A DNA stretch of 42,546 bases from a virus, in the IMG/VR virus record IMGVR_UViG_3300045988_157693, positions 1-42,546 of that record. One strand, written 5' to 3'. The notes under the pieces were generated by a model. It was not told the DNA's origin and did no database searches. It was given only the letters and a program-made list of their open reading frames with translations. The position numbers were made by a program, and so were the translations under genes. Positions 16,265 through 42,546 of the stretch are shown here, piece after piece. Each line of letters begins with the position of its first letter. The stretch's first letter is position 1.

Positions 16265-16288
16265 TACTTACTCTGCTCTCTTTCTTTT

Positions 16289-16555
16289 TTATAACTCAAC
16301 CATAAATGAATAAGATTTTAACAAGATTGCGTCACATACAGCATTAAAATCTTCAAAACGAATATTACTGCTATGCTCGCAAATATCAGTTGCTATTTCT
16401 ACAATATCATCACTTGTAATATCTTCTTTTTTTGTCTTAGCAAGCATATTGCTATATTCTTCATTGTTGCCATTTGTGTACCACGCTCTTTCGATGCATA
16501 AAGCTCTTAATGCATCGCTTGATAATCTTCTAACAACTTTATAACCGTATTTCAT
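16289..16555 (-). CDS. Hypothetical 88-aa protein
   Basis: Preceded by the conserved leader ...GGCTTGACGGGCAGAAAGAAAGAGGTA. Confidence 0.8.
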   Translation of the reverse strand: MKYGYKVVRRLSSDALRALCIERAWYTNGNNEEYSNMLAKTKKEDITSDDIVEIATDICEHSSNIRFEDFNAVCDAILLKSYSFMVEL

Positions 16556-16560
16556 TTTAT

Positions 16561-16611
16561 TACCTCTTTCTTTCTGCCCGTCAAGCCGTTAGCTCAGCTT
16601 TTAATTATATG
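16561..16611 (-). repeat. Conserved 5' leader, copy 1 (28 nt identical to 17225-17252, with extended similarity)
   Basis: tacctctttctttctgcccgtcaagccg on the plus strand, directly abutting the start of 16289..16555. Confidence 0.7.
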
Positions 16612-16617
16612 CCGTGC

Positions 16618-16932
16618 TTATAGTGTTTTCGTTGATATATACTGCTCTATATGTTTCATCACGGGGTCAAATATCGTGACTGTCGCATATTGCATTGTTT
16701 TATGTACTGTGTATGTGGGTGTGCTTATTATTATCATTTCGCCACCATTCTGCCGTTCTACCCACTTTTTCAAGCGGTCAATTTCTTTTCTGAGTGTATC
16801 GGCTGTTTCGTAATGTGAATACTTTGCAATTTCTATTGTGTAGCCTTCCGCCGCATTTTCATTTTTACCGCATAAATTATAATTGTATTCTGCACGGCTC
16901 ATAAGCTTTTTAACATATTTTGGTATTTTCAT
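16618..16932 (-). CDS. Hypothetical 104-aa protein
   Basis: Open frame with an AAAGGG RBS. Confidence 0.8.
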   Translation of the reverse strand: MKIPKYVKKLMSRAEYNYNLCGKNENAAEGYTIEIAKYSHYETADTLRKEIDRLKKWVERQNGGEMIIISTPTYTVHKTMQYATVTIFDPVMKHIEQYISTKTL

Positions 16933-16972
16933 TGTTTACGCCCTTTCTTTAAATGTTTCGTTTTGGCACATT

Positions 16973-16995
16973 AAGGGCGGTGTGAACCGCCCCTT
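16973..16995 (-). terminator. GC-rich hairpin (possible attenuator or terminator)
   Basis: aagggcgg-tgtgaa-ccgcccctt. There is no clear U tract. Confidence 0.4.
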
Positions 16996-16998
16996 GCG

Positions 16999-17217
16999 TT
17001 ACTCTGCGTTGTTGTGTTCTATTTCAAGTATTCTTTCTCTTACTTCTGCAAACTGCTCGTTATACACATTCAATCGGTATTGACAAATGCAGTTATCTCT
17101 TCCATACTCTTTTTTTGTTCTATCGTTTATTTCTTCTTCGTGTTCTATATTTCTAAGTAATATTTCATAAGCCATACTTAAAAGCTGATGTTCTGTCATT
17201 GTTTTCAATTCTTTCAT
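16999..17217 (-). CDS. Hypothetical 72-aa protein
   Basis: Preceded by the second copy of the conserved leader. Confidence 0.8.
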   Translation of the reverse strand: MKELKTMTEHQLLSMAYEILLRNIEHEEEINDRTKKEYGRDNCICQYRLNVYNEQFAEVRERILEIEHNNAE

Positions 17218-17224
17218 TGTTGTG

Positions 17225-17277
17225 TACCTCTTTCTTTCTGCCCGTCAAGCCGATAGCACAGCGATTAGATGTTATGC
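17225..17277 (-). repeat. Conserved 5' leader, copy 2
   Basis: The same 28-nt core as 16561-16588. Confidence 0.7.
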
Positions 17278-17763
17278 CAAGAGTGATTGTTTTTGTGTGA
17301 TTTTCTCACTTCCGAAGAGTTCACGGATTTCATCAAGACTGAAGGTTTTTTTACTCTTCTTCTTGTAATCTTCGTTGTGAAAATACCACGCTGTTTTCTT
17401 TTTCGAAAATCTGAATTTCAAGGCTTTCAACTGTTCACGGCAGTTATATGTGTTGCCTGTTACCCATACCCAATTACCGCAGATTTCAATTTCAATTCCC
17501 TGCAGTTTAACAAGTTCATTGATAATGTTTTTGAACTCTTCGGGAGTTTCTTTTACTTCTTCGGAAGTTTCGTACACTTTACCGTCTGCGGTTGATTTTG
17601 AGTTTTTGAGGATTGCAAAGAGTCTGTCATATTCAGCATTGATTTCTTGCATTTCTTCCGTTGTTCCGCCACAGTCAGGATGATGTGCCATTGCAAGTTT
17701 TTTGTACTGCTTTTTGAGTTCTTCAAGTGTTTTTGGATTGCTAAACCATTTTGTGTTTGTCAT
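17272..17763 (-). CDS. J-domain (DnaJ-like) protein
   Basis: LEELKKQYKKLAMAHHPDCGG...EINAEYDRL contains the HPD tripeptide. AAAGGAG RBS before the ATG at 17763. The longer track ORF runs through the promoter. Confidence 0.85.
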   Translation of the reverse strand: MTNTKWFSNPKTLEELKKQYKKLAMAHHPDCGGTTEEMQEINAEYDRLFAILKNSKSTADGKVYETSEEVKETPEEFKNIINELVKLQGIEIEICGNWVWVTGNTYNCREQLKALKFRFSKKKTAWYFHNEDYKKKSKKTFSLDEIRELFGSEKITQKQSLLA

Positions 17764-17812
17764 AGTGTTTAATCTCCTTTTGTTTTTTTGGAGGTTTCCC
17801 TCTGTTGTGACT

Positions 17813-17841
17813 ATAATAGCACGAATTTCGTGCCTTGTCAA
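17813..17841 (-). promoter_or_regulatory. Leftward promoter of the accessory island with a palindromic operator
   Basis: The minus strand reads TTGACA, 17-nt spacer, TATTAT. The spacer contains the perfect palindrome GCACGAAATTCGTGC (plus 17819-17833). Confidence 0.65.
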
Positions 17842-22049: not shown

Positions 22050-22379
22050 ATGCTCAAAGTTAAAGTTGACATTAAGAATTACACCGTAACAATGAGAGGT
22101 CACGCAGATTTTGCTGAAAACGGCAAGGACATTGTGTGTGCAGGAGCATCAACGCTCTTGTACACACTTGCAAACACGCTTGAAGAATTTCGCACAGCTA
22201 TGACAGAATCACCGTCATTTACTATCAGCGGTGAGGGCGAGAAACAGCGTGTTACATACAGGTGCAAGCCTAATGAGGAATACGAGCCTAATGTGCAGTT
22301 AGTCTTCATGACTGTTACAACAGGCTTTAATCTGCTTGCCGAAAACTATCCCGACAACATTAAACTTACCGTTATTTAA
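22050..22379 (+). CDS. prp: Prp-family cysteine protease (ribosomal-processing protease homologue)
   Basis: GHADFAENGKDIVCAGASTLLYTL matches the GHA...DIVCAAVS signature of Prp/YsxB. Confidence 0.8.
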   Translation: MLKVKVDIKNYTVTMRGHADFAENGKDIVCAGASTLLYTLANTLEEFRTAMTESPSFTISGEGEKQRVTYRCKPNEEYEPNVQLVFMTVTTGFNLLAENYPDNIKLTVI

Positions 22380-22515: not shown

Positions 22516-22630
22516 GCAAAATTTTTTATCGTTTTGAAATTGATGGTTTGAGGTGTTTAGTCTTGCAATGCTAAATTGTGAACATAGGCTCGTGACCTTA
22601 ACCACAGACTTTATATGGAAGGAGATAGCA

Positions 22631-23629
22631 ATGATTAAGACTATCTCAACAGCCGTTGTTACTGAACTTATGTTCCGTTGTTTTAACATTCAGCTTTTCG
22701 CTGACGGTGGCGGTGGTGCATCTGCAGGTGCATCCGCAGGAGCAGGAACAGGTGAAGGCTCAACAGGCATTGCAGGAGAAACAACAAACACATCGTTCCC
22801 TGCCGATGGCAAAGGCTCTGCACCGAAGATTGTTTACGGTAAGCAGAGTGAAAGCAACACCGAAGTCGGTGCTGTTCCCGAAGAAAAGCCGAAAATGACT
22901 TTTGCCGAACTCGTTAAATCTGACGAGTGGAAAGACGATGCCCAGAAGTATATGGACAAAGCCTTTTCAAAGAGATTCAAAGAGCAGGAGTCGCTCAAGG
23001 CTGAGAACGCAAGAATGCGTGACATCCTCAACATAGCTAATGTCAGATACGGACTCGATTCCGCATCAGACAGTTTCCTTGATGACCTCAGCAACAGTAT
23101 TCAGAACGATACGAAACTGTATGAAGATGAGGCACTTGAGGCAGGATTACCTGTTGAGGAATATGTCAAGGTAAAGAAAGCAGAGAGAATTCTTGAAAAC
23201 AACAAGCGTGAACAGGCAGACAGAGAAAGACAGGCATTCATTAACGAACATTGCAAGAACCTTGTGAGTCAGTCGGATGCAATGAGAGAACAGTTTCCGT
23301 CTTTCGACCTTGAAACAGAGATGAGTAATCCTCAGTTTCGCAAGCTCGTTGACCCGCAAGAGTTAGGCGGTATCGGTCTTTCAGTAGACAACGCTTACCG
23401 TGTGATTCATTACAAGGATATTCTCAACGCTACTGTGAATAATGCGGTCAATCAGACAGCTATCAATACTGCGAATGCAGTCAAAGCTAACAAAGAAAGA
23501 CCAAGGGAAAACGGCATGAATCACCGTGCATCCGTCATTGTGAAGGATGACCCGTCACAGTTTACTCTTGATGATTTCAAGCGTATCAAGGAACAGTTTA
23601 TTAGGACTGGTGTTGCTCCCAAATTCTAA
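22631..23629 (+). CDS. Scaffolding protein with an L27-like N-terminal propeptide
   Basis: GGAAGGAG RBS. N-terminus ...FNIQLFA|DGGGGASAG. The central region is charged and helical. It lies immediately upstream of the capsid gene. Confidence 0.75.
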   Translation: MIKTISTAVVTELMFRCFNIQLFADGGGGASAGASAGAGTGEGSTGIAGETTNTSFPADGKGSAPKIVYGKQSESNTEVGAVPEEKPKMTFAELVKSDEWKDDAQKYMDKAFSKRFKEQESLKAENARMRDILNIANVRYGLDSASDSFLDDLSNSIQNDTKLYEDEALEAGLPVEEYVKVKKAERILENNKREQADRERQAFINEHCKNLVSQSDAMREQFPSFDLETEMSNPQFRKLVDPQELGGIGLSVDNAYRVIHYKDILNATVNNAVNQTAINTANAVKANKERPRENGMNHRASVIVKDDPSQFTLDDFKRIKEQFIRTGVAPKF

Positions 23630-23647: not shown

Positions 23648-24646
23648 ATGTCTAATATTATGTACAATCTTATTCTCCAGCTTTTCGCTGGCGAAACAAC
23701 CTTAAACGCAAACAAAACATCCGCAAGTGGAATGTCCCCGACAATGAAGACATTCTATGACACTTCCCTTCTCGAAAACGCAAGGGCAGAACTTATCTTC
23801 AATCAGTTTGGCGATAAGCAGAAGATTCACGGTAATAAGTGCGAATGGAGAAAATTCAACACATTCCCGAAGGCTCTCACACCGATTACCGAAGGTGTTA
23901 CACCAACAGGACAGGCTTTCGGCATGACGAAGATTGAAGGTACAACATCACAGCACGGCGATTACACCACAATCACAGACAGACTTGAATATGAGGCATA
24001 TGACCCGATTATTCAGGGCTGTACAGAAGAGATGGGTGCATCAGCAGGTGCGACTATGGACACTCTCACAAGAAATGTCCTCATTGCAGGTAACTCTGTT
24101 ATGTACTGTCCGAAGAAGGACGGTACAGTGATTTCAACAAGAGATACACTCACAGCAGATTGTGTTCTCACTCCTGCGGTTGTTAAAAAGGCTGTTACTT
24201 GGCTCAAAAAAAACAAAGCACCGAAGATTAACGGAAGCTATGTATGTCTTATCCATCCCTCTGTCGCTCATGACCTTACAGAGTCTGACGAGTGGAAAGA
24301 GTACCACAAGTACAATGACACAGCTCCTATCTTCAAGGGTGAAATCGGCGAACTTCACGGTTGCCGTTTCGTTGAGTCAACAGAGTGCAAGATTCACGCA
24401 CGCAACAAACTCGGCATTGCTACATATGACACACTTTTTCTCGGTGCAAAGGCTTTCGGCATCATTGAACCTGAAAACGAGTCAATGCATATGATTATCA
24501 AGGACAAGTCGGAAATCGGCGGTCCTCTCGAACTTTACAGCACAGTAGGCTACAAATTTAGCCACGGTGCTAAGATTCTTTATGAGGAAAGAATCCTCCG
24601 TGTCGAGTCAGGCTCTTCTTACTCATCTGTTGACGAGGAAAACTGA
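23648..24646 (+). CDS. Major capsid protein with an L27-like N-terminal propeptide
   Basis: N-terminus MSNIMYNLILQLFA|GETT. Size and position fit a capsid gene. KTFYDTSLLENARAELIFNQFG is a typical capsid N-terminal pattern. Confidence 0.88.
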   Translation: MSNIMYNLILQLFAGETTLNANKTSASGMSPTMKTFYDTSLLENARAELIFNQFGDKQKIHGNKCEWRKFNTFPKALTPITEGVTPTGQAFGMTKIEGTTSQHGDYTTITDRLEYEAYDPIIQGCTEEMGASAGATMDTLTRNVLIAGNSVMYCPKKDGTVISTRDTLTADCVLTPAVVKKAVTWLKKNKAPKINGSYVCLIHPSVAHDLTESDEWKEYHKYNDTAPIFKGEIGELHGCRFVESTECKIHARNKLGIATYDTLFLGAKAFGIIEPENESMHMIIKDKSEIGGPLELYSTVGYKFSHGAKILYEERILRVESGSSYSSVDEEN

Positions 24647-30026: not shown

Positions 30027-31277
30027 ATGGCATATGTATATCAGAAATACAATCAGTCGGCAAATGCAACGAATTATCAAAACCGACAGGATGATGCAAC
30101 AAACCGATATAACGATTTTGCTCAGACAGGCTACACAACAGGGGCAGGTGGTTTCGGTGGTCAGATAAATTCTGCACAGGCTAAGCTTAATCAGTTATAC
30201 GGTAACAACAACCTCTCACAGCAGTTTAAGTACGGCAATCAGGGAGCATACAACAAGGCGATGAACGCTGTTGCCAACCGTAAAGCATTTTCCTATGACC
30301 TTTCAAATGATACGCTTTTCCAACAAGCGAAAGAACAATATCAGAATATGGGCAAGGTCGCAATGGCTGATACAGTAGGTCAGGCATCTGCGATGACAGG
30401 CGGTTACGGCAACAGTTACGCAACAACTGCAGGCTCTCAGGCTTATCAAGGCTATCTGCAACAGCTTAACAATGACATCGGTAATTATTACAGTATGGCA
30501 TTAAGCGGTTTCAATGCCGAAACAGACAGACTTAATAACATTTACAACATGTACGCTCAGGACAGAAGTCAACAGCAGAATGAGTGGTCTAACAACTGGA
30601 ATGTATATAACAATCTGTACGGCTTGTATCAGAGCGAACTGCAGAATGCACAGAGTAATGACCTCAACGCTTGGAATCAGAAAGGTACAAACCTTTACAA
30701 TTCCGCTAATCTTGCAACAAATCAGTACGGTACTGCATCAAGCAATGATATTGACACTTGGAAACAGGGTGAAACATTGCGTGCAGAACAGGCACAGCAG
30801 GAAGAAACTGAGAGAGCAAACCGCATTGAAGAGGCATACAAGAATGCACAGCTTGCAGAACAAATCAGAGCGAACAAAGCCGAAGAGGCTTACAGACAGT
30901 CTGCACTTGCTGAAACAATCCGTAACAACAAAGCAACAGAAAAAATCAATACATACAAAGCCCAAAATTCCTCTTCTTCCAAAAACAAAAACAGCGGTGA
31001 AAACTGGTACAATGTCAATGCGAAAGCAACGAGGACAGGCACAACTTCAAACCTCATCAGCGAAATTGACAGCAAAGCCAGAAGCTTGCAATACTCCAAA
31101 TACTCAGGTGACTACACTAAAGCCATTAACGATATTCTTCCCAAATATCTTAATAATGCTTTTGCTAATCATACATTGTCAAGCGGTGAAATCAACTATC
31201 TTTCGAGCTACTACGGTGCATCTGACATCGGCAAAGCGTATAAGCGAGCACATAAAACATCAAGCTCAAAAAAATAA
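30027..31277 (+). CDS. Q/N/Y-rich structural protein (416 aa)
   Basis: AAAGGAG RBS. Strongly biased composition (QQNEWSNNWNVYNNLYGLYQ...), then repeats of ANRIEEAYKNAQLAEQIRANKAEEAYRQSALAETIRNNKA. Confidence 0.85.
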   Translation: MAYVYQKYNQSANATNYQNRQDDATNRYNDFAQTGYTTGAGGFGGQINSAQAKLNQLYGNNNLSQQFKYGNQGAYNKAMNAVANRKAFSYDLSNDTLFQQAKEQYQNMGKVAMADTVGQASAMTGGYGNSYATTAGSQAYQGYLQQLNNDIGNYYSMALSGFNAETDRLNNIYNMYAQDRSQQQNEWSNNWNVYNNLYGLYQSELQNAQSNDLNAWNQKGTNLYNSANLATNQYGTASSNDIDTWKQGETLRAEQAQQEETERANRIEEAYKNAQLAEQIRANKAEEAYRQSALAETIRNNKATEKINTYKAQNSSSSKNKNSGENWYNVNAKATRTGTTSNLISEIDSKARSLQYSKYSGDYTKAINDILPKYLNNAFANHTLSSGEINYLSSYYGASDIGKAYKRAHKTSSSKK

Positions 31278-31289
31278 GGAGATAAATCT

Positions 31290-34200
31290 ATGAATTACCT
31301 TGATTACCTTAAAAAGAAAAAAGATGAAAATGATAATTCCCAGTCGAACACCACGACTGGGAATACCTCTAACGAAAAAAGCGATAGTTTGCTTGATGCG
31401 ATTAACGGCAAAAACGGTAACAATGATTATCTTGATTATCTCAACAGTCAGCCTGTACTTGGCCAGGAAGAAGAAGAAACACAGGCATTACACGATATGG
31501 GTAATGGCGAAGATGTGTTGTCAAGATGGTATGACTCTGCAAGCAATGCAACATCTAAGGCTTATTACGAGAATCAAAATACAGCATTTGATTCTTTAAA
31601 AAATAGAGCTGATACAATCTCAAAATATTATCAAACAGCCGATGCTCTCAAAGGCTCTGCTAAACAATTTTATGATAAATACGGCTATACTGATGACTCA
31701 TCAGATATGCAGAGTGCTATCTCTGACCTTAACATTGCAGAAGACAATTTCAAAACTAACGCAAAAGAAATTCAAAATGCAATGTCAGATTTTGACACAG
31801 AACAGGAATACAAATCTGCTGTTGCACAGGCAGAAGAAGATGCCAAAACTTCTGATGATTTACAGAAAGAATATGACAAGAAGAAAGCCGAGTATGACAG
31901 TACTTGGGGCGATTTCAACAAGGAATATGCCGAAATTGGCGGTAGTTACAATAACAATCCCTTCACTACGCAGGGCAAAAACGCAAACAAAAAATTGCAT
32001 GAACGCACCGACCAAAAAAAGGAACTTGGTGAACTGCAGAGAAAAATTGACCAAAAAAAGGAACTTGAAAACGAAAAGAAATACTATACTGATTTTCGCA
32101 AGCAAAATCCCGAAGTAGCAAAAACTCTTGATGCTTATTATGATATGCAGTCATATGAAGAGGAACACTCCAAAGATGCATTAGATACATATAACAAAGA
32201 GGTTTTAAAAGAGAAACTCAAAAAAGGTAAACTGCCGACAGATTCCTTATATACCGATGAAGAGAAAAAAGCTATCGAAACTAACTTTAATTCGCTCAAG
32301 ACTCTTGATGGTTGGAATGTTGACCAAATTTATAAATACTACAAACGGGCAAAAGACAGAGAAAAAGCCGAGAAAGAAAATGAAAATATTAAAGATTTCG
32401 CTGATAAGCACCCGATTGCAAGTACGGCTATAAGTACGCTTAATATGATTCCGTCAGCTTTTGAAACCGCACCAAAACAAGTCGCATCAAATATTGATAA
32501 ATGGACAGGCGGTGACGGATATTATAATCCCGAGGAATCTGCCGTGTACCAAAACAATTTATTGCAACAGGAAGTCGCAAGTAATATAGATAATCCGTTA
32601 GGAAGATTGGCTTACCAACAGGGAGTTAGCCTTGTTGATAACGCTATTCGTATGGGTATCGCATATGCAAATCCTGCTGTCGGATTATCTATGATGGGTG
32701 CAGAGGCAGCGACACAGGGATTTAATGATACTGTTGAAAATGGCGGTTCAGTAGAGCAGGCTCTTGCCACAGGTCTTGTTTACGCAGGTGTTGAAGTGCT
32801 TACCGAAGGTGTATCACTTGGTAAACTGAAAAGTTTCAAGAATGGCGGTGTAAAGGAATTCAAGAGCATTTTAAAGAATGCAGGAAAGCAGATTTTGACC
32901 GAGGCATCGGAAGAAGTATCTGCAACGCTCCTTGATAGTGTAGCAGATGAAATCATTAACGGTAGCTTATCACAGCTTGAGACAGAGTATGACAAATATA
33001 TTGACAGCGGTATGTCCGAAACTGAGGCAGGACAGGCAGTAATGCTGAATTACGGCAGTCAGATTATACAGGATGCAATTGGCGGTGCATTGATGGGCGG
33101 AATTTCGGGTACTGCTGTCAATACATCTCAATACAGAAGAAATATTAAGGCAGGAAAATCTATATCCTCTCTTGATAACATAGACACAGTTAAGAATCTT
33201 GCCAAGCATTACGGTCTTAATGACAGCGTTACCGATTATGAAAGCAACCCAACGGATGCAAAACTCGGTGCTTTGCAGAGCGAGGCATACGAAAAAGCAA
33301 CAGAAAGTATGCCAACAGAAAAAGACCTTAAAAAAGTCATCAAAAAATCAAACCTTGCATCAGATGAAAAGGTTGTTGCAAACAAACTTACAAACGGTGA
33401 AAATTTGACGGACGATGACCTTGAAAAAATCAAAAAGTCTGAAAATTTGAAGTCACTTCTTGCAAGCAATGTTGTCAATCAGACAAAGACTGCAAGATTT
33501 AATCAGCAGACTGCGTTGCTTTCCGCAGACACGAAACTGTTCACACCGAGCCTCATTGAGTTTAACGCTGAGAAAAGTGATACTGATGCAAATCTTAACA
33601 ATGCCGAAACACTCGACAAGTTTCTTTCGGAAAACGCTAAGAATATGACAATCAACACCGATACGGTTGATAAGATGAAAGATGCTTATAACGGATTAGA
33701 AGATAAAATCGAGCCTGATACTTTCGCTATGGAGTATGCGAGATTTTTCAATCAGGGTGTTCGTGCGGTTGCATTTCAGAGCTTGAATAGCACGGTATCA
33801 CAGTTACCGTACAATGTACAAGTATCGGCTTATGAAGATGGCTTGAATAAGTACACAACGGCACTCAAAGCTGGCAACGCTCTTTCAAAATTACAGCAGG
33901 AATGGAAAGACAAAACAAACGGTTACGCTAAAGGTACGGTTGATACTTCCGCTCTTGAAGGTATCAAACTTAACGATGAACAGAAAGCATCTGTTGATTA
34001 TATCTCAGGCTATGCTAATCACGGTTTGAATGTTAAGTTTTATGCATCACGGGCTGACGAAAACGGTGTGTATATAGACGATAACGGTGGTTATGACTCT
34101 TTAACTAATACCATAATGATTGATATTAATGCAAAGAAAGAAACCATCAACGATGTTATAAGTAAAGGTGCGATGATGTCAACTTTCGGCCACGAACTTT

Positions 34201-37200
34201 CCCACCTTGCTGAACACGCACCCACAGAGTATGCAGAGCTTTCAAAAGCTATTCAGGATGCCGTTGGTGCTGATACATTCAACGATGCAGTCGATAAGCA
34301 TTATTCTATACTTGAAGAACGCAACAGCGACAAATGGCAAAAAATGTCAGAGGATAAAAAACAAATTTATGCGACAAGAGAGGCAGTTGCCGAATTTTCT
34401 TCTGACCTTGTTAATCAAGCTAAAATTCTTGAAAGGATGTCAAAAGAGAATCCCTCTGTCGGAAAGAGATTTATCAATTTCATTAAGAAAGTTATTAGCA
34501 AGATTAAAAACATTCTCAAGGATAACAGAGGTATGACCGATGAGGCAAGACTACTTGCTAATAACCTTGCAAGCAATGCTGAAAAACTGCAGTCAATTGT
34601 TGATAAGTACGAAAAAGCTGTCATCGAAGGACTTAAAAATCAGAATGCAAAAGTTCATACAAATAAATCTTCTGTAAAAGAAAATAATACAAAAACTCAA
34701 AGTAATACAAGAACAGGAGATTTTCTTACAGAAAGAGAAAGAACGCTTGTAGCAACACACAATATAAGTTCACAGAACCTTATGAATCTTATCAACGATT
34801 TTGACGGAGCAGGTTTACCAGTACCGAGCATTGCAATTGAGAAAGCTGATAGTGTTCACGATAATTTTGGTGATGTTACTCTGTTGTTTAACAAGGACAC
34901 GATTGACCCACAGAATAATAGTAATAACAATGTGTACAGCCGTGATGCGTGGACAAGTACCTTCCCACAGACGGAATACAAAATTAACGCTGAGGGTCTT
35001 AAAGCAATTGCGAAAAAGTTAGATTTATCTGAGAATTATCTCGAAAGTAATATATTTAACACTAATGATTTAAATGGAATTAAGCGTAAATTTTTAAATG
35101 ACAGATATGTACGAAAAGCCTTCGTTGAAGAAAACAATATTGAGGTTACCCCTGTTGCATATGAAAAAAAACCTAAATTCTCATTTTTCGCAAACCCAAC
35201 TGTCAAGTCTTTTATCAAAAACAACAACTGTACATTTGATAGACTTGTTAATGACAAAGAATTTCGAGATGCTTTTTTAAAGGTTGCTAAAGAGTCAATT
35301 CGACTGCGGATTGCGTTGCGACAAGTCGAAAGATTTGAAAACACTCTTGATGATTGTGCAAAATCTAAAGATGTGTATAGTGATTCCAAAGAGTCAATTG
35401 AATACTGCATTGAATATGCCAAAGGTAATGCTAAAAAAGAAGTGACTGAATACTCATATGAAGAAGGTATAGAAAATGCTATCAATGAGCATAAAGCGGA
35501 ATTTGAAAAGTATATAGACAATATGCTTTCTGAAAGCGATGTCATCGGAGATAAATATATTGTCAGAGATGATGTCAACTTATACAACAATGACGGTAGT
35601 CGAAAATCTTTTGAACAGACACATTACGATTACAATATTGATAATGTAGTCAAAGCTATGAAAGTAGGAAAGAATGTAGTTGGGAATTCCTTTTTAGGTG
35701 GAATGGAATTCACGAAAACGATATCTGCACAAAATCTTAATAGCATTGACGAAATAAAAAGTAACGAACATATGTTACAAGAATTATCGCCTGAGGAAAT
35801 CGAAACCCAAAAGGAAAACATTTCCAATCTGCTTGCTCCGATAATAAGAGAGGTTGCTGACAGCGATAAATATAGCAACGGTTTTATTGGTGCAAGCGAA
35901 AATATTGTTGATGCATTTAAGGCATATAATACGGTTGACGGTGTTTATAAATATCTTAAACAGTATTATAGTAACCTCAAAAAAAGCACGGTAAATAAAC
36001 TTTTCAAGGCGAGAGATGAGATTGCCGAAATGCCAGTAAGATACTTCGAGGCAAAGCCACACAGAGTTGTAGGATTTGACGAGGTAATGGCGGTGGTTAT
36101 TCCTGCTGATGCAGACGAAAAATTAAAAACTGCTCTCAAAAAAATGGATATACCGATGTATGAGTATGCTGATGAAAGTCAAAGAGCAGATGCTACGCAC
36201 AAAGCAATCAACACGGAATATACAGACAAATCGGGTGTAACTTATGACAATCTTCAATTTTCAAGCAACAGAGGTGACTTTCTTTCAGAAAAAGAGGCTG
36301 ATAACCAATACTCTCAAGCCGTCAAAAGCAATGACATTGAAACAGCACAGAAATTTGTCGATGAAAAAGCTATGTCTTGGGGAGCATACTCAGAGAATGG
36401 AAAAACTCCAACCAAACTGTATCACGGCACAGAAAGTTTTGGCTTTACTGCTTTTGACCTTTCTAAGATGGATAACGGAGCAAGTATATTCTTGACGAAT
36501 AAACCCGAAATTGCCTCTACATATTCAGGTGTTGAAATTGAAAACAATATACAACACACAATAAACTCCATTAAAGCGATAAGCTCTAAAGTTAAATCAA
36601 TGTCTATTTATGAAATTGAAAAGAGTTTAAACTCGCTCACGCACGGTAACACTAATCCCGAATTAAGAGCAGATAATGACGATTTGCATTACTCAATTGT
36701 AGATGAAAACGCTGTTAATAAGTTTACGGCTAAAGTTAATTCTGAAATTGATTATCTCATAGATTACTTGAAAGGCAGAGAAGGATATTTTAAGAAATTC
36801 CCGAAAATTGATTACGATACTAAGTATTCTGATTTTGTAGAAATGCTTAAAAATCGTCAATATAATAAGATTTCAAATCCTTTATTCAATTTAATTGAAA
36901 GCACAAAGTTTGACTCTACGGAAGAAGAACAGAAATTTCGGAAAATTGAAAGAGACAGTTATGAATTAGTTAGAATTTTGGAAGTTTATAATAATTCCCC
37001 AATAATCATAAGTAAGGATTCCCAAAGCACAATTTTTGGCGTTTTTAACGAAAATAAAGCTAAAGATTATCTAAAAGGTAAATTAACGGAACAGGTACAA
37101 AAAGGTAACTATTCGTTGTTTGCTAAAATAGAAAATCCTCTTATTATTGATGCCAGCAAAAGTAATTGGAATGAAATTGATGTGAAATCAGTTATAAATA

Positions 37201-40200
37201 CACCTTTCGGTGATGCAATTAAATCAGAATATGGTGAGGATTATTTTAATTACGGAACACAACACCTTTCAACAAGAGAAGTTTCTAAATATGCGAAACA
37301 GGCAGGTTATGACGGTGTCATCTTTAAGAATCTTAAAGATAACGGTGGTCGCAACAGTAATGTTTCACTTGATACTGTTTCTGATGTTTACATTGCTTTT
37401 AATCCGAACAATGTAAAATCAGCTGATGCAATAACCTACGATAACAACGGCAAAGTAATTCCGCTTTCAGAGAGATTCAACAGTAGTGAGAATGATATTC
37501 GCTACAATATGAGAGGCGGTGACTTCCTCAGCAACCGAGAGGCACTTGCACAGGCTCTTGAAACAACAGCACTTAATGCCTCAGAGCGAAATACCGTCAA
37601 GACCTATCAACAGGGACTTGAGCAGATGAACAAACTCAACGATAAACTTAATGAGATTGACAGCAAAATCAAGACTATCAATGCCAAAGACAACATCTCT
37701 AAGAGCGACAAAGCGGAGATTGCATCGCTTGAGAAAGTTAAAGCGGAAACCGAAGAAAAAATCGTAAACAAAGACAAAAGTCTTTTAAAATTGGAGTCAA
37801 CCGAGGCAATGCGTAACATCTTGAAGTACGAAACCTCCAAAAAGATTGCAAGAGTGCGTGAGCAGAAGAACAATCGAATTGCTGAAATCAGAAAGCAGGA
37901 AACGCAGAAACGCAAGGATGCCGTTGCTAAACTCCGTAAACAGAAGAATGATAAGATTGACGATATCATTTTGAAAAACCGTGAGAAACGCAAAGCAGAT
38001 AGTGAAAAACGCAAGGACAATCAGGACTGGTCGCATTCAATCAGCGAAATCAAGAAATACTCGAAGAAACTGTTAGATGCTGTCTTGCATCCGACAGAAA
38101 AAATGTATATTCCATACGGCTTGAACGAGCCTATCAAGAGTATTACATCAACTCTTCTTGATTCGATGAATCTTGATAATGATACTAAGATGTCAGACAA
38201 TTTGAGAAAACTCTCTCAACAGCTCGAACAAGTCAATCAAAGTGATGAGCATTACGGTGATTTCTATAATGCTTACAATGAGGAAATTATCGAGGAAATA
38301 AAAGACTTTGCCGATTACCTTGAGGAAAGACTTGAAGGTGTCAAAATTAAAAAACAGACACAGAAAGAAAGCCTTATTGAAGGACTCACACACGAAGAGG
38401 CTAAGGAAATTGAACAGATTGTCAAAGATGTGTACAACGCAACAAGGGATGCTGTTAAGCAGATTGGCAGACAGGATGCTATTACTAACTATGAGTCAGG
38501 TTTAAGGATTATTAATCAGACAAGAGAACTCGGTGATGTTAAGCTTAATGTAATGGACTCATTACTCGACCAAGTATTATCACCGATGCGACTTATGGCA
38601 AAGTACACAGGCTACAATGCGGATGCCGAGCTTATGTATCACATCAATGCTCTTAACGAAGGTACGGAAAAGTACAATATGTTTAAGATGCTCGCCGAAA
38701 AGCCTCTCAATGATTTTATCAAAGAAAATCCGAAGGGCTATGAAAGTTTTAAAAATGATGTTGTTGAAATCAAATACCGTGACAATAAGAATGTTGCACA
38801 GACTGTCAAAATGACAAAGTCACAGGGATTGCAGATACTGATGTCTTGGACAAGAGAACACACAGAAGGCTCTCGCCTTGACCATATGGAGCGAGGCGGT
38901 GTTACTTTGCTTGATGCCGAACAGATGAGTAAAGGCAATTACGAAAAAGCATTCGCTCAAAGAAAGACCATCAGAGGCATTAATTTAAGTTTCATATCGG
39001 CTGTACAGAGCCAAATGGGAGAGTTTGAAAACCATTATCGTGAACTTGCCGAAACCCTCTTCAATGAGGTTTCCAATGCTTACATCAATGACACTTCTGC
39101 AATTCTTCTTCATCGTGACATTGCAACCGAAAAATACTACATACCTTTTGCTGTTAATAAGGATTTTCTTTCGACAGAAATTGACGGCTTGAAGTACGAT
39201 GCAACCATTGTCAACAAAGGTATGCTGAAAACTACTAAGAAAAACGCACCACAGGCTCTTAACATTGCAGGACTCGACAGCGTTATATCTAAGCACATAA
39301 GAGATGTCGGACAGTATTACGGTTACGCTGTGCCTATCCGTAATCTTAACAAGGCACTCAATGTTAAGATGTTTGACACAAACGAAAACGGCAACAAGAT
39401 TGCAACAGACTCCGTCAGAAATGCCCTCAGAGAAACCTTTAATTCTGACAAACCTATTCAGTTTATCGAACAGGTAATGACCGACTTGCAGACATCAAGA
39501 AAATCAAACTCTCAGACCGAAAAAGCAATCAATAAGATTGTTAGGGCAGTCAGAGATAATATGATTACATCGGCACTCAAAGGCTCTGTATCGGTAGTTA
39601 TTAAGCAGGGTGCATCATTGTACACAGCATCAAGCATTCTTTCAATGCGTTCCGTATCTGTCGGTGCAGTCAAAGGCATTCAGCAGATTGCTCGCAAGGG
39701 TGGTTGGAAACAGCTTACAGATGAGATTGATGCACACACGGCAGGTCACTATATGCGTAGAATTGGCTTGTCATCGATGGAAATCGAGGCAATGAAAGAC
39801 TCTTGGCTCGGTAAGAAACTGCCCACAGCACTCAACCCTGCAAAATGGATACAGGGTACAGACTGTATTACAACAGCGTTGCATTGGGTGGCTACTAAAG
39901 AAGAAGTAAGCCGATTTTATAAGGAACAGGGAAAAGCTGGCCAAATAGGCTCTGATGAATATTTCGATGAGGTCACAAAGTTATATGACCAAATCCTTGA
40001 AGAAACACAGCCTATGTATGATAGCCTCCATAGAGGTGAAATACAGAAAAATTCAAACGAGTTGTTAAAATCTGTATTTATGTTTAAGACTCAGCCATTG
40101 CAGAACACAGGTATCTTGTATGATGCAATTATGGATTATCAGGCAAACAAGGACAATGCAGAACTTCGAGATGCCAAAAAACAAAAGCTTGCAAAAGCAG

Positions 40201-41045
40201 TTTCCTCACAGATGGTGTCGGCACTTACTTTCGTTGCAATGACCTTTATTGCATCCCTCGCTCTTCATAAACCTGAACGCTACAAGGACGAAAATGATGA
40301 GGTTACTCTTTCCTCTGTTCTTGAGAGACTTGGCATTGATTGGGCAGAAACAGGATTTAGTGTTCTTGTTCCGATTGGCGGTGCTGAACTTGCATCATTC
40401 ATTGAAAATCAGATTAACGGTAAAGATTATGATTTTGCATCTGATAATGTTGTGTCAATGCTCAATGACTTTACTTCATCAATTGGTGACTTTAATCAAA
40501 ATGTTATTGTTGCTCTTGCACAAGGTAATTTTGACCTTGACAAAGCAAAAGATGCCCTATGGGGATTATCTGTCGATGGTCTTGCATTTTTCAAAGGATT
40601 TCCTTTGAAGAATTACAGCAATATCGTTAACGGTATCTTCTCTAATTTGTCGGATGCAATCAGCGGTCATAGCACTTACTTCGGTTCATCGGGCGGTCGA
40701 AAAGGTAGTGAATACGCAAACTCATATGATGTACTTATTGACAATAACCCCGAAAAGGCAAAGCAACAGCTTGAAACATTCTATAACGAGAAGTATGAAG
40801 AACAGATTGCAAAAGGAGAAACTACAACCGAGGCAAAGAAAAAAGCACAGACCTCTGTCCGTACTGCACTAACTACGCAGTATAAGAAAGAGTATCAAAA
40901 AGCATTTCTTAATAATGACCGTGACACAATGCAGAAAATCAGCAAGAAACTGCAGGAGTCAGGCTATATGAAGTGGGAAGGCAAATCATTGTCGACTGTG
41001 TTAGGCGAATGGACTAAGTCAGCTAAAGAAGATTTAAGCAAGTAA
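31290..41045 (+). CDS. Giant 3251-aa polyvalent-type virion protein (HExxH metallopeptidase-like, LPD-like and ADP-ribosyltransferase-like modules)
   Basis: Uninterrupted ORF with an AAGGAG RBS. HELSH at 34191-34205. HNISSQNL..GLPVPSIAIEK module. LYHGT...GYDGVIFKNL...VIPLSERFNSSENDIRY module. The linker R(G/T)GDFL(S/T)x(R/K)E occurs three times. Confidence 0.93.
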   Translation: MNYLDYLKKKKDENDNSQSNTTTGNTSNEKSDSLLDAINGKNGNNDYLDYLNSQPVLGQEEEETQALHDMGNGEDVLSRWYDSASNATSKAYYENQNTAFDSLKNRADTISKYYQTADALKGSAKQFYDKYGYTDDSSDMQSAISDLNIAEDNFKTNAKEIQNAMSDFDTEQEYKSAVAQAEEDAKTSDDLQKEYDKKKAEYDSTWGDFNKEYAEIGGSYNNNPFTTQGKNANKKLHERTDQKKELGELQRKIDQKKELENEKKYYTDFRKQNPEVAKTLDAYYDMQSYEEEHSKDALDTYNKEVLKEKLKKGKLPTDSLYTDEEKKAIETNFNSLKTLDGWNVDQIYKYYKRAKDREKAEKENENIKDFADKHPIASTAISTLNMIPSAFETAPKQVASNIDKWTGGDGYYNPEESAVYQNNLLQQEVASNIDNPLGRLAYQQGVSLVDNAIRMGIAYANPAVGLSMMGAEAATQGFNDTVENGGSVEQALATGLVYAGVEVLTEGVSLGKLKSFKNGGVKEFKSILKNAGKQILTEASEEVSATLLDSVADEIINGSLSQLETEYDKYIDSGMSETEAGQAVMLNYGSQIIQDAIGGALMGGISGTAVNTSQYRRNIKAGKSISSLDNIDTVKNLAKHYGLNDSVTDYESNPTDAKLGALQSEAYEKATESMPTEKDLKKVIKKSNLASDEKVVANKLTNGENLTDDDLEKIKKSENLKSLLASNVVNQTKTARFNQQTALLSADTKLFTPSLIEFNAEKSDTDANLNNAETLDKFLSENAKNMTINTDTVDKMKDAYNGLEDKIEPDTFAMEYARFFNQGVRAVAFQSLNSTVSQLPYNVQVSAYEDGLNKYTTALKAGNALSKLQQEWKDKTNGYAKGTVDTSALEGIKLNDEQKASVDYISGYANHGLNVKFYASRADENGVYIDDNGGYDSLTNTIMIDINAKKETINDVISKGAMMSTFGHELSHLAEHAPTEYAELSKAIQDAVGADTFNDAVDKHYSILEERNSDKWQKMSEDKKQIYATREAVAEFSSDLVNQAKILERMSKENPSVGKRFINFIKKVISKIKNILKDNRGMTDEARLLANNLASNAEKLQSIVDKYEKAVIEGLKNQNAKVHTNKSSVKENNTKTQSNTRTGDFLTERERTLVATHNISSQNLMNLINDFDGAGLPVPSIAIEKADSVHDNFGDVTLLFNKDTIDPQNNSNNNVYSRDAWTSTFPQTEYKINAEGLKAIAKKLDLSENYLESNIFNTNDLNGIKRKFLNDRYVRKAFVEENNIEVTPVAYEKKPKFSFFANPTVKSFIKNNNCTFDRLVNDKEFRDAFLKVAKESIRLRIALRQVERFENTLDDCAKSKDVYSDSKESIEYCIEYAKGNAKKEVTEYSYEEGIENAINEHKAEFEKYIDNMLSESDVIGDKYIVRDDVNLYNNDGSRKSFEQTHYDYNIDNVVKAMKVGKNVVGNSFLGGMEFTKTISAQNLNSIDEIKSNEHMLQELSPEEIETQKENISNLLAPIIREVADSDKYSNGFIGASENIVDAFKAYNTVDGVYKYLKQYYSNLKKSTVNKLFKARDEIAEMPVRYFEAKPHRVVGFDEVMAVVIPADADEKLKTALKKMDIPMYEYADESQRADATHKAINTEYTDKSGVTYDNLQFSSNRGDFLSEKEADNQYSQAVKSNDIETAQKFVDEKAMSWGAYSENGKTPTKLYHGTESFGFTAFDLSKMDNGASIFLTNKPEIASTYSGVEIENNIQHTINSIKAISSKVKSMSIYEIEKSLNSLTHGNTNPELRADNDDLHYSIVDENAVNKFTAKVNSEIDYLIDYLKGREGYFKKFPKIDYDTKYSDFVEMLKNRQYNKISNPLFNLIESTKFDSTEEEQKFRKIERDSYELVRILEVYNNSPIIISKDSQSTIFGVFNENKAKDYLKGKLTEQVQKGNYSLFAKIENPLIIDASKSNWNEIDVKSVINTPFGDAIKSEYGEDYFNYGTQHLSTREVSKYAKQAGYDGVIFKNLKDNGGRNSNVSLDTVSDVYIAFNPNNVKSADAITYDNNGKVIPLSERFNSSENDIRYNMRGGDFLSNREALAQALETTALNASERNTVKTYQQGLEQMNKLNDKLNEIDSKIKTINAKDNISKSDKAEIASLEKVKAETEEKIVNKDKSLLKLESTEAMRNILKYETSKKIARVREQKNNRIAEIRKQETQKRKDAVAKLRKQKNDKIDDIILKNREKRKADSEKRKDNQDWSHSISEIKKYSKKLLDAVLHPTEKMYIPYGLNEPIKSITSTLLDSMNLDNDTKMSDNLRKLSQQLEQVNQSDEHYGDFYNAYNEEIIEEIKDFADYLEERLEGVKIKKQTQKESLIEGLTHEEAKEIEQIVKDVYNATRDAVKQIGRQDAITNYESGLRIINQTRELGDVKLNVMDSLLDQVLSPMRLMAKYTGYNADAELMYHINALNEGTEKYNMFKMLAEKPLNDFIKENPKGYESFKNDVVEIKYRDNKNVAQTVKMTKSQGLQILMSWTREHTEGSRLDHMERGGVTLLDAEQMSKGNYEKAFAQRKTIRGINLSFISAVQSQMGEFENHYRELAETLFNEVSNAYINDTSAILLHRDIATEKYYIPFAVNKDFLSTEIDGLKYDATIVNKGMLKTTKKNAPQALNIAGLDSVISKHIRDVGQYYGYAVPIRNLNKALNVKMFDTNENGNKIATDSVRNALRETFNSDKPIQFIEQVMTDLQTSRKSNSQTEKAINKIVRAVRDNMITSALKGSVSVVIKQGASLYTASSILSMRSVSVGAVKGIQQIARKGGWKQLTDEIDAHTAGHYMRRIGLSSMEIEAMKDSWLGKKLPTALNPAKWIQGTDCITTALHWVATKEEVSRFYKEQGKAGQIGSDEYFDEVTKLYDQILEETQPMYDSLHRGEIQKNSNELLKSVFMFKTQPLQNTGILYDAIMDYQANKDNAELRDAKKQKLAKAVSSQMVSALTFVAMTFIASLALHKPERYKDENDEVTLSSVLERLGIDWAETGFSVLVPIGGAELASFIENQINGKDYDFASDNVVSMLNDFTSSIGDFNQNVIVALAQGNFDLDKAKDALWGLSVDGLAFFKGFPLKNYSNIVNGIFSNLSDAISGHSTYFGSSGGRKGSEYANSYDVLIDNNPEKAKQQLETFYNEKYEEQIAKGETTTEAKKKAQTSVRTALTTQYKKEYQKAFLNNDRDTMQKISKKLQESGYMKWEGKSLSTVLGEWTKSAKEDLSK

Positions 41046-41111: not shown

Positions 41112-42546
41112 ATGAAGTCAAGAACAATGAAGTTTACGCTCGACTGCTCCAAAGTGGGTAATCAGTTATGCATAGATGGCATCAGACAGGGCGATGCCAA
41201 CTCTATTGTATTTATTATTTCACTTGCAAACGGCATCAATTTACTTGATGTTGTTGCAGGAAAAGAGGAATCCGTTGTTGTGACAATGTACGGCAAGAAA
41301 CCCGATGGCACAACAATTGTCCGTGATTGTGGAATTAACGAGGACGGTAACATCACATACACTATCCACACTCAGGACACAACTTGTGTCGGCATCGTCA
41401 GTTATCAGCTTGTTGTTACATCTACAAGAGAAAAAATACTTGCATCCCCTGTTTTCAGTACAATGGTTGAGGAACGAAATCTCTTCAAGACTTATACAGT
41501 ATTGACAGTACAGCCTGATGACTGGGCAGATGGTTACGATAAGTATTATTACTATGAAGATGGCAGATTTTACAAACTGAACCGTTTTGAGAGTGAGCTT
41601 GCTCCCAAATGGGTAATCAACAAGTATTACTCTGTCAATGACAATGAGGTTGAAAGCACATCAGATTTCGATGCCCTTGCATATGCTCTTCTCAGAGCAA
41701 AACAGTATTCGGACAAAAGCGAGGAATACCTTGCAGAAGTTAAGAAAAAAGCTGATAAAAGTACCACACTTGCAGGGTACGGTATCACAGATGCCTTACG
41801 AAACGCAAAAGGCACAGTAAGCACAAATAACCTTGCCGATAATTGCGTGTCCTCTAACAAGCTGTCAGCGGATGTTCGGGCAAACATTAACAGCAAAGCT
41901 GAATCAGCAAAAGTCAGTCAGCAGTTATCGCTCAAGGCAGATGTTTCATCCGTATATACTAAATCTGAATCTGATGCACTTCTTAAAGCCAAAGCAAACT
42001 CGGCAGATGTTGATGCATCTGTCAAAACAATCAACACAACAATTGCAAACAATCAGAAAAGTGTAAATGCAAGCCTTGAAAGCCTCAACACAGCATTAAC
42101 CAATAAAGCCGATACAGATGTTGTCAATGAGGTAAAACAGCATGCAGAGGCAAATACAACGGCAATAGGACTTAAAGTGAACCGTACCGACTTTAACAAC
42201 ACCGTGGCCAACCTCACAAGTAGCATTAACGAAAAGGCTGATAGCACAGATGTCAACGCATCCATCGCATCATTAACAAGTGTAGTATCAACAAAGTACG
42301 ATTCGTCAAATATCGAACTTGGTACATCAACGCTTACACCGTACTCAACTTTGATTGATAAAATAAAATCTGCAACTTGCCTTTATGAAAAAATTGGCGA
42401 TATCGTTATTGTAAATGTCACCGTCATTATGAACGCAACAACTTTAAGCGGAACATCTGCAATATCTTTGCTCAATATGCCGTTTCCAAACAAATCGGAT
42501 GTGATTGTTCATGATATCGGCATAAGCAAAAACGGCGGTATGTTCA
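41112..42546 (+). CDS. BppU-like baseplate/tail-fibre protein (runs off the window end and continues at 100..209)
   Basis: GAGGTG RBS. The N-terminus MKFTLDCSKVGNQLCIDGIRQGDANS is BppU-N-like. The fibre motif TLAGYGITDA is at about 41765-41794. Long serial A/S/T/N-rich coiled-coil repeats. No stop before the window end. Confidence 0.85.
   Translation, partial: MKSRTMKFTLDCSKVGNQLCIDGIRQGDANSIVFIISLANGINLLDVVAGKEESVVVTMYGKKPDGTTIVRDCGINEDGNITYTIHTQDTTCVGIVSYQLVVTSTREKILASPVFSTMVEERNLFKTYTVLTVQPDDWADGYDKYYYYEDGRFYKLNRFESELAPKWVINKYYSVNDNEVESTSDFDALAYALLRAKQYSDKSEEYLAEVKKKADKSTTLAGYGITDALRNAKGTVSTNNLADNCVSSNKLSADVRANINSKAESAKVSQQLSLKADVSSVYTKSESDALLKAKANSADVDASVKTINTTIANNQKSVNASLESLNTALTNKADTDVVNEVKQHAEANTTAIGLKVNRTDFNNTVANLTSSINEKADSTDVNASIASLTSVVSTKYDSSNIELGTSTLTPYSTLIDKIKSATCLYEKIGDIVIVNVTVIMNATTLSGTSAISLLNMPFPNKSDVIVHDIGISKNGGMF
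42448..42546. repeat. Terminal overlap copy B (identical to 1-99)
   Basis: Exact repeat of the first 99 nt. It lies inside the open reading frame that starts at 41112. Confidence 0.95.

Follow-up and report, generated by a model that had tools for sequence, protein, structure and literature searches.

A 3251-residue polyvalent-type protein with exchangeable effector cassettes in a short-tailed phage of the gut

Polyvalent proteins of phages are predicted to be the first proteins deployed in a new host, and to our knowledge almost none of them has been studied experimentally. Iyer et al. (2017; PMC5512222) proposed that these proteins are delivered together with the DNA and are then cut into units by a domain named MPTase, and they discussed the virion RNA polymerase (vRNAP) of phage N4 and DdrB of phage P1 as precedents. 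Here we describe a giant open reading frame (ORF) in the viral record IMGVR_UViG_3300045988_157693 of IMG/VR, the whole of which (42,546 nt) is called the window in the following. The ORF occupies 31290..41045 on the + strand as one open frame of 3251 amino acids (aa) plus the stop codon, and its product would be ~358 kDa. It joins effector-type domains that are unrelated to each other, namely PBECR5, ART-PolyVal and an HExxH module, and this content supports its assignment as a phage-type polyvalent protein as defined by Iyer et al. The same class had been named in an earlier reading of the sequence without database searches (the original prediction), and it is borne out by the matches to PBECR5 (112 bits) and ART-PolyVal (54.9 bits) and by the late-operon position of the gene. 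We put at roughly 60% the probability that the ORF encodes a polyvalent effector protein of a temperate podovirus infecting Ruminococcus-like gut Clostridia, in which a conserved frame acts as the delivery chassis for cleavable effector cassettes.

Like the proteins of Iyer et al. (PMC5512222), the product of the giant ORF has a PBECR RNase-like domain, an H-Y-D ADP-ribosyltransferase (ART) and a zincin-like HExxH hub in one giant polypeptide encoded among virion genes, and its domain content is mosaic between close relatives, comparable to that of Helicobacter jhp1044. It differs from them in that its HExxH module lies outside the Pfam model MPTase-PolyVal, that no Pfam LPD domain is present, and that most of the protein is an undescribed frame. 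A described case similar in size and habitat is found in the prophages phi1 and phi4 of C. clostridioforme LM41, which also reside in gut Clostridia and have an 8-kb ORF at their 3' end that makes up ~20% of the genome; the resemblance of this ORF to polyvalent-protein domains of Podoviridae sp. was noted in passing, without a dissection of domains (PMC11318856). A further case is gp47 of phage phi24B (vb_24B_48; 2,807-2,811 aa), which mass spectrometry placed in virions and for which packaging in the capsid and a role as an ejection protein have been proposed (bioRxiv 10.64898/2026.04.10.717836). phi24B is likewise a temperate podovirus, in which the giant gene is the last of the structural region, follows a gene of ~420 aa and encodes an HExxH peptidase-type region. 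However, gp47 has domains of its own (LPD5, LPD1, LPD38 and MuF-C), its host is Gram-negative, and the profiles of four frame regions of our protein (G/A, C1, C2 and C3, see below) gave no match to it. The gene preceding the giant gene of phi24B encodes a 421-aa protein (L089 27853-29118), and its similarity to the 416-aa protein at the same place in the window is not significant (BLASTP E 0.37); the ~420-aa gene before the giant gene is a positional parallel only.

From these cases it is clear that this kind of protein is already known: the class since 2017, an ORF of ~20% of the genome since 2024 (PMC11318856) and the idea of ejection since 2026 (bioRxiv 10.64898/2026.04.10.717836). The original prediction had considered two properties of the ORF unusual, and neither is so. 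The size has its equal in the C. clostridioforme prophages, and these polyvalent ORFs and the 2811-aa ORF of phi24B are likewise located at the end of the structural module. Close relatives of our protein already carry the label 'nuclease' in nr. No earlier description came to light of the frame that unites the family, of the precise cassette boundaries found between near-identical phages or of the junction tag; neither PMC5512222 nor other literature yielded a description of the tag, the linker or the exact cassette breakpoints.

A conserved delivery part with exchangeable effector modules and a short junction motif is also known from the MuF-fused toxins of temperate Firmicutes phages and from contact-dependent inhibition (CDI) and Rhs toxins. 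Unlike in those toxins, the cassettes of the giant ORF are internal instead of C-terminal and several are present at once, and we saw no MuF domain or immunity gene.

An exact direct repeat of 99 bp is present at both window ends (1-99 and 42448-42546), and therefore the window represents a complete genome, assembled as a circle of 42,447 bp, of which the giant ORF takes up 22.98%. Full-length relatives with 91-99% identity were observed in independent assemblies, and the ORF is intact in >100 further clusters (90% identity) from four data sources. It is therefore not an assembly artefact, and the earlier description of a single uninterrupted ORF covering 23% of the genome holds in full. The search for a + strand terminator near the start of the ORF gave none.

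When the whole protein was scanned against Pfam, PBECR5 (PF18814) was the sole match, with 112 bits against a cutoff of 25 (112-116 bits over all scans made) and with positions 11-116 of the 239 profile positions covered. In 13 aligned PBECR5 modules H1155 (in the motif LVAxHN) is invariant and the threonine of a DAWT motif is conserved. These two residues fit the His plus Ser/Thr configuration of PBECR domains, from which we infer that they are catalytic; the core of this cassette (cassette A, Table 1) is named here, from the Pfam match, as a predicted BECR-fold RNase. The core is followed by an extension of ~400 aa with no Pfam match, and core and extension occur together in 10 of 12 representatives. 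The cassette is absent as a unit from four relatives (P0059, P0108, P0118 and L003). The original prediction had read the module starting THNISSQNL as an LPD domain; it is the PBECR5 module instead, and the Pfam LPD models gave no match in whole-protein or tiled scans at E<=10.

The second cassette (cassette B) contains ART-PolyVal (PF18760), which scored 54.9 bits against a cutoff of 31.2 when the module (nt 36270-37520) was scanned alone. The domain lies in two stretches, aa 1706-1747 and 1921-2047, divided by a clade-specific insert of ~130 aa (aa 1779-1910; nt 36624-37019). Each half alone stays below the cutoff (24.9 and 30.2 bits), and the scan of the whole protein did not report the domain, which is explained by the splitting insert; a compact ART without the insert in the relative P0012 reaches 58.9 bits. 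An alignment of 42 ART modules showed conservation of H1712 (100%), Y1745 (86%) and D2008 (83%), and these residues are consistent with the H-Y-D site described in PMC5512222, in which H, Y and D belong to strands 1, 2 and 5. The ADP-ribosyltransferase-like module that had been proposed at about nt 36282-37505 is thus recovered by the profile. As a unit it is missing from one close relative (L002) and from 62 of 120 close clusters.

The third element is the HExxH module, which precedes the two cassettes. The motif, HELSH, is at aa 968-972 (nt 34191-34205), a strand with the sequence NTIMIDINA at aa 940-948, and the predicted third zinc ligand, E1031 (nt 34380-34382), 59 residues downstream of H972. 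Each of H968, E969, H972 and E1031 is 98% conserved across 150 family members, and all are invariant in alignment A2. The module is present in 146 of the 150 family representatives. An AlphaFold2 model of the module (pLDDT 90, pTM 0.89) begins with an N-terminal helix and three strands, after which come the HExxH helix, inserted helices and a helix bearing the glutamate (DSSP: H31-46, E49-53, E68-71, E76-80, H96-109 with HExxH, H156-172 with Glu). This topology is the core that Iyer et al. give for MPTase (PMC5512222), and the module is read as zincin-like from it, from the conserved motifs and from fold matches. In a Foldseek search of BFVD the model matched parts of proteins annotated as 'PolyVal ADP-ribosyltransferase', 'Large polyvalent protein-associated domain-containing protein', 'Nuclease' and 'MuF C-terminal domain', most of them of Podoviridae sp. 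(E 4e-8 and 4e-7; TM 0.68, root mean square deviation 4.5 A over 272 columns), and Peptidase M48 and a mimivirus metalloproteinase appeared only at E 0.3-0.5. Three of 18 diverse family members match MPTase-PolyVal, at best with E 0.013, and DUF6782 is likewise reached only at E ~0.01 in a few distant relatives. The profile of the HExxH alignment matched only spurious coiled-coil or designed proteins among PDB sequences; when the family profile was compared with seven T7 and N4 targets, the best match, a weak one (P 0.0026), was the segment of N4 vRNAP around its HExxH (aa 2101-2454). By sequence and model, we take the module to be the zincin-like hub domain of polyvalent proteins, in a clade that the Pfam model does not reach. 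The position, the motif and the zincin-like reading that had been given earlier are therefore upheld, and the match to Pfam MPTase-PolyVal is not (see below).

About two-thirds of the protein, made up of the G/A region and the last 1,170 aa, forms a conserved frame without any described domain. We searched exhaustively for this frame with aa 400-1140 as the query against representatives at 50% clustering, and obtained 1,696 representatives at E<=1e-3 and 800 at E<=1e-10, almost all of 2,400-4,700 aa. The elements were then counted by iterated local profiles in the best 150 representatives. The G/A-rich region was found in 146 of them, the charged helix in 111, C1 and C2 in 122 each and C3 in 51; of the remaining parts, ART was found in 43, PBECR5 in 12 and the N-terminal 400 aa of the window phage in two. 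The order is fixed: a variable N-terminus, the G/A region, HExxH, a variable zone of 400-2,400 aa, the charged helix, C1, C2 and C3. The profile phrog_22978 (3,513 positions, no function assigned) matches the protein colinearly in three places, and its positions 424-582 correspond to the G/A region. The family is large but essentially uncultured. Megablast of the giant ORF against 50,697 phage records gave no match, and tblastn against the same records gave three marginal or partial ones; with a divergent family member as the query, too, only unannotated faecal contigs were obtained. An NCBIfam scan had no match, and among PDB sequences phmmer with the whole protein and a profile of the C-terminal part gave only spurious matches to coiled-coil or designed proteins. 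In databases, close relatives bear names that say little or are wrong ('MAG TPA: nuclease', 'hypothetical protein'); a 2,814-aa relative (P0037) is called 'ribosomal protein S16'.

The G/A region was described earlier as Gly/Ala-rich and hydrophobic. It is rich in these residues (G+A 26% in aa 401-500 vs ~10-15% elsewhere), but its hydrophobicity is only mild (Kyte-Doolittle maximum over 19 residues, 1.26). The K/E-rich coiled coil of the same description is likewise accepted in part. The segment aa 2090-2240 has no proline and one glycine, and heptad periodicity is seen only in aa 2090-2160 (2% of shuffles reach the value). The following ~80 residues (aa 2160-2240; 37767-38009) are rich in R, K, E and Q, have neither proline nor glycine and give no heptad signal; by composition they resemble an ER/K-type single alpha-helix rather than a coiled coil. 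The C-terminal 962 aa were modelled by AlphaFold2 as almost wholly alpha-helical (pLDDT 75, pTM 0.69), and for this backbone searches of Pfam, of NCBIfam and of the PDB by sequence and by fold yielded no match. Inside a long helix of the model lies the stretch aa 2975-2993, the only strongly hydrophobic one of the protein, which agrees with the transmembrane-like segment noted originally; its hydrophobic character is conserved in alignment A3.

Next, we compared the variable zone among close relatives, in which the frame is 90-100% identical. The PBECR5 and ART blocks are present or absent independently of each other: 62 of 120 clusters have PBECR5 only, 43 have ART with a third cassette, and nine have PBECR5 and ART as in this phage; rarer combinations include the compact ART. 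At the DNA level, the breakpoints relative to two relatives with genomes 92-95% identical fall within ~20 nt of three linkers that contain GDFL. In L002 the ART block (window 36284-37517) is missing and an 11-nt overlap remains at the joint. In L003, 44 nt take the place of the PBECR5 block (34690-36269), and a cassette of 1,008 nt is inserted at window 37509-37517. The third cassette has 334 aa, follows ART and is bounded by SDDDFLSDDE and TAGDFLSTRE (aa 1557-1890 in P0059-type relatives; about 14669-15676 in L003); in P0059 it has no Pfam match. Module swapping among related phages, which the original prediction had raised, is thus observed for PBECR5, ART and the third cassette as exact units at the GDFL linkers.

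GDFL stands at aa 1143, 1662 and 2077, and the pattern GDFL[ST]x[RK]E occurs three times where composition predicts 4e-5 occurrences. The number and the positions (nt 34710, 36270 and 37512) of the thrice-repeated linker R(T/G)GDFL had been given correctly in the original prediction, but the second copy is NRGDFL, without the T/G residue. In relatives without ART the junction reads FSSNRGDFLS/NREALAQ, and all junctions in the clade follow x[GSD][DS]FL[ST]xxE. The DNAs of the three linkers have only 8-15 nt in common and differ at synonymous sites, which indicates that the conservation is at the peptide level. For the same reason we rejected the idea that the linkers are DNA repeats that drive homologous recombination.

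Apart from whole cassettes, we observed allelic blocks within the gene. In close relatives that are otherwise >90% identical, aa 1-170 (window 31290-31800) exist as two alleles with ~35% identity, and a block of 44-55% identity lies inside the PBECR5 cassette (aa 1228-1466; 34971-35687). The comparison of these sequences indicates frequent recombination within the giant gene.

A second motif marks the ends of modules. In the variable zones of the family no motif is more enriched than the tag with the consensus IKSADxxTYDxxGxxIPLSERF...DIRY(S/Q)xR(D/E): these zones contain D[IVL]R[YF] 70 times, spread over 58 of 119 proteins, vs two occurrences in the other parts of these proteins. In 12 representatives, as in this phage, the frame resumes 8-12 residues after the tag. 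In other clades the residues before PBECR5 domains are DIRFSMRDNVEE or KFSLRENVEQ. A literature search for DIRYS, DIRFS and IPLSERF returned only irrelevant matches.

Table 1. Features of the giant ORF and of the genes around it (window positions)
Feature	Residues (aa)	Window positions (nt)	Strand	Remarks
N-terminal region	1-399	31290..32486	+	K/E/D-rich, variable; common to 2/150 family representatives
G/A-rich backbone region	400-640	32487..33209	+	
Zincin-like HExxH module	860-1140	33867..34709	+	
Cassette A	1141-1660	34710..36269	+	PBECR5 core and ~400-aa extension ending TYDNLQFSS
Predicted PBECR5 RNase-like core	1148-1257	34731-35060	+	Pfam PF18814
Linker 1, RTGDFLTERE	1141-1150	34710..34739	+	Breakpoint vs L003 at nt 34689/34690
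Linker 2, NRGDFLSEKE	1660-1669	36267..36296	+	
Cassette B	1661-2074	36270..37511	+	ART-PolyVal, Pfam PF18760
Module-end tag, KSADAITYDNNGKVIPLSERFNSSENDIRYN	2043-2073	37416..37508	+	
Linker 3, RGGDFLSNRE	2075-2084	37512..37541	+	Insertion point of the third, 334-aa cassette in P0059-type relatives
K/E/R-rich helical region	2085-2289	37542..38156	+	
C-terminal backbone, C1-C2-C3	2290-3251	38157..41042	+	95-100% identical among close relatives
Hydrophobic helix, MVSALTFVAMTFIASLALH	2975-2993	40212..40268	+	Kyte-Doolittle 1.83; followed by a conserved acidic RYxDExDE motif
Shine-Dalgarno sequence, AAGGAG		31276..31281	+	8 nt 5' of the ATG; shares bases with the stop codon of the 416-aa gene that precedes
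416-aa Q/N/G-rich protein		30027-31277		Immediately 5' of the giant gene; no family match
Fibre-like gene (514 aa)		41112 to 209, across the window-end junction		Directly 3' of the giant ORF; weak BppU_N match
Tyrosine integrase		719-1936	-	
Helix-turn-helix (HTH) repressor		2435-2794	-	
Prp-family cysteine protease		22050-22379		Adjoins the portal gene
Scaffold-like and capsid protein genes		22553-23629; 23648-24646		Prp-type xxQLFA motifs near the N-termini of both proteins
Endolysin, GH25 and PG_binding_1		13932-14816	+	5' of the terminase genes, not after the structural module

From these data we propose the following course of events. The frame would serve as the chassis with which the protein enters the capsid and later leaves it, together with the DNA, by way of the portal and tail. 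In the first minutes of infection the PBECR5 RNase-like and ART cassettes, whose predicted catalytic residues are intact, would act on host RNA and proteins and so blunt defence or take over the cell. The junctions, composed of the IPLSERF...DIRY(S/N) tag and the GDFL(S/T)xxE linker, would be the cut sites of the peptidase in cis, possibly also of the phage Prp, and separate effectors would result. The model of delivery and cutting of Iyer et al. fits this protein unusually well, as judged from the peptidase in cis, the intact effector residues and the peptide at every cassette boundary.

The analysis covers the domains and their conserved catalytic residues, the frame, the cassettes with their breakpoints, the operon context and the prophage state as observations; packaging, ejection, cleavage and targets are what we infer. 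Several points weigh against this reading. The polyvalent protein studied best, N4 vRNAP, goes into the virion without processing (PMC5512222). The exact GDFL linker was found 11 times against 3.7 expected in the 150 representatives, so it is clade-specific and we rejected it as a family-wide motif. About half of the DIRY tags follow ART modules, which leaves room for the tag being in part the structural end of ART rather than a signal for cleavage. For the peptidase, PF18818 (MPTase-PolyVal) has no match in the window protein at E<=10; the best match of the HExxH model in a Foldseek search of the PDB is anthrax lethal factor, a weak one (E 0.12, TM 0.22); and the alignments of the peptidase region are weak, with a probability of 11.5% for N4 and of 7.5% for phi24B. 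For the frame, the best PDB match of the C-terminal backbone by Foldseek has E 0.085, and T7 gp13-16 and N4 gp50/51 gave hhalign probabilities below 1% against it.

The junction motifs could alternatively be permissive flexible joints that allow recombination and independent folding, similar to the demarcating motifs of polymorphic toxins, and the protein would then act uncleaved. The breakpoints exactly at the motifs and the 11-nt overlap at one joint speak for such joints, and the unprocessed state of packaged N4 vRNAP (PMC5512222) and the clade-specific GDFL variant point in the same direction. However, linker DNAs with synonymous differences are a poor recombination substrate, and it is the amino-acid motif itself that is selected. 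The DIRYS tag is conserved across clades with 15-40% identity, which is beyond the need of a passive spacer, and the peptidase domain is present in cis in 146 of 150 representatives. We therefore regard uncleaved joints as a possible but somewhat doubtful explanation.

The proposal of a delivery chassis leans on the place of the gene in the genome. The gene order is TerS, TerL, a P22/SU10-type portal, Prp, the scaffold, the major capsid protein (MCP), three large genes without assigned function, the 416-aa gene, the giant ORF and the fibre gene. The giant ORF thus belongs to the late structural operon, in which the portal, MCP and tail-region genes precede it and the fibre gene follows directly. 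The proteins of 629, 840, 89 and 416 aa encoded 5' of it have no Pfam match, and those of 629 and 840 aa have none among PDB sequences. The capsid protein is 32% identical to those of the Bacillus podoviruses Page and Pony and 51% identical to those of human faecal phage contigs, and it is also related to that of Paenibacillus API480. As had been stated originally, no tape-measure gene was found in the genome; genes for a tail tube, a tail chaperone and a distal tail protein were also not found, which indicates a short-tailed phage.

The position of the giant gene is that of T7 gp16, immediately before gp17, and a chassis role is suggested because the genes of T7 gp14-16 and of the P22 ejection proteins are placed in the same manner, between the tail genes and the fibre or spike gene. 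These ejection proteins are also largely alpha-helical, and in T7 gp16 an enzymatic domain, a transglycosylase, is fused to an ejection protein. N4 gp50 (3,500 aa) is another giant podovirus protein with a zincin-like HExxH region; a few copies of gp50 are packaged, and they are ejected along with the DNA. The differences are considerable. No sequence or fold similarity to T7 proteins was detected, the window protein is a single polypeptide of 2.5 times the size of gp16, and its Gram-positive host has no periplasm to bridge. From N4 gp50, which stays unprocessed, it differs by the lack of an RNA polymerase module and by dissimilarity of the rest of the proteins. In Bacillus phage Page the syntenic gene encodes a 1,679-aa protein, gp20, which was matched neither by BLASTP nor by the family hidden Markov models. 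We consider it plausible from synteny that the protein doubles as an ejection or internal virion protein, as had been suggested.

The same position could also mean that the protein is mainly a structural one, an ejectosome or conduit corresponding to T7 gp15/gp16 for the thick Gram-positive wall, in which the HExxH module digests peptidoglycan cross-links instead of processing the protein and the cassettes are optional passengers. The conserved hydrophobic helix and the long helices in the most conserved part are in line with this. Among the 629-, 840- and 416-aa proteins no other virion-associated wall hydrolase was found with Pfam, the only lysin found being the GH25 endolysin, and the authors of the phi24B study suggest a peptidoglycan role for gp47 (bioRxiv 10.64898/2026.04.10.717836). 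Yet the HExxH fold matches other polyvalent proteins and no known peptidoglycan peptidase, similarity to the ejectosome proteins of T7 or N4 is lacking, and cassettes with intact catalytic residues are kept under obvious selection. A mainly structural conduit is unlikely in our view; it overlaps with the proposal of a chassis with cleavable effectors, and the two are not mutually exclusive.

Still less probable, but worth stating, is a late cytoplasmic protein for anti-defence or host takeover that is never packaged and acts in the producing cell or only after lysis, so that the place in the operon reflects timing. Packaging of the window protein is indeed a deduction, and no resemblance of its backbone to known internal virion proteins could be detected. 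On the other hand, anti-defence is needed early, yet this gene is late, between tail and fibre genes and without its own promoter or terminator. A frame of >2,000 aa conserved across ~1,700 clusters would be hard to explain for a carrier of soluble enzymes, and phi24B gp47 and N4 vRNAP are found in virions. We can dismiss as highly improbable a siphovirus tape-measure protein, or an assembly artefact or gene fusion, since the large size, the G/A-rich segment and the lack of another tape-measure candidate are outweighed by the P22/SU10-type portal, the capsid related to those of Page, Pony and API480, the missing tail-tube and chaperone genes, the ~0.5 micrometre tail that by our own estimate 3251 aa would imply, and the intact ORF in independent clusters from all four data sources.

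The integrase and the HTH repressor (Table 1) indicate that the phage is temperate. A close relative is integrated as a prophage in a 135-kb scaffold (L003, 21100-29204), beside a DUF1015 gene, with the order giant gene, fibre gene, an 82-aa gene and then bacterial genes. A flanking GlgB in this scaffold is 84-86% identical to those of Ruminococcus sp. JE7B6 and of Ruminococcaceae metagenome-assembled genomes, and from this flank of a relative's prophage the host is probably a Ruminococcus-like Gram-positive gut anaerobe.

The family of the frame comprises ~1,700 clusters at 50% identity, from uncultured gut phages only, with prophages in Ruminococcus-like commensals. Near-identical phages that differ only in their effector cassettes represent a natural experiment, and the exact boundaries together with the junction tag provide handles on the cutting of the polyprotein, on the function of the frame and on engineering by cassette swaps. 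We go further only tentatively, with a suggestion that we think may well prove wrong: the frame would be an undescribed, very widespread delivery chassis of uncultured gut podoviruses, an ejectosome component made of one polypeptide with a plug-in bay for cassettes that each end in the tag, the tag would be a cleavage site of the zincin or of Prp, the injected polyprotein would be cut into custom effectors, and the turnover of cassettes would make the bay an arms-race locus. Should this role in ejection be borne out, the frame would provide the first model of how podoviruses of Gram-positive anaerobes deliver proteins.

The Prp-type motifs have the contexts MSNIMYNLILQLFA/GETT in the capsid protein and FNIQLFA/DGGGG in the scaffold-like protein, and they suggest a Prp-dependent head maturation, for which staphylococcal phage 80alpha serves as the comparison. 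Cutting by Prp at the cassette junctions was tried as a candidate and left as weak; DNLQFSS and NDIRYNM resemble the QLFA motif of capsid and scaffold only in part. The GTG given as the start of the scaffold ORF probably lies too far upstream, and relatives call a 332-aa product.

The endolysin gene is followed by a block of - strand genes (15360-17841), where both GC and AT skew flip. This block contains a candidate Lar-like restriction-alleviation gene (16004-16264) and a gene for a DnaJ-domain protein (17272-17841).

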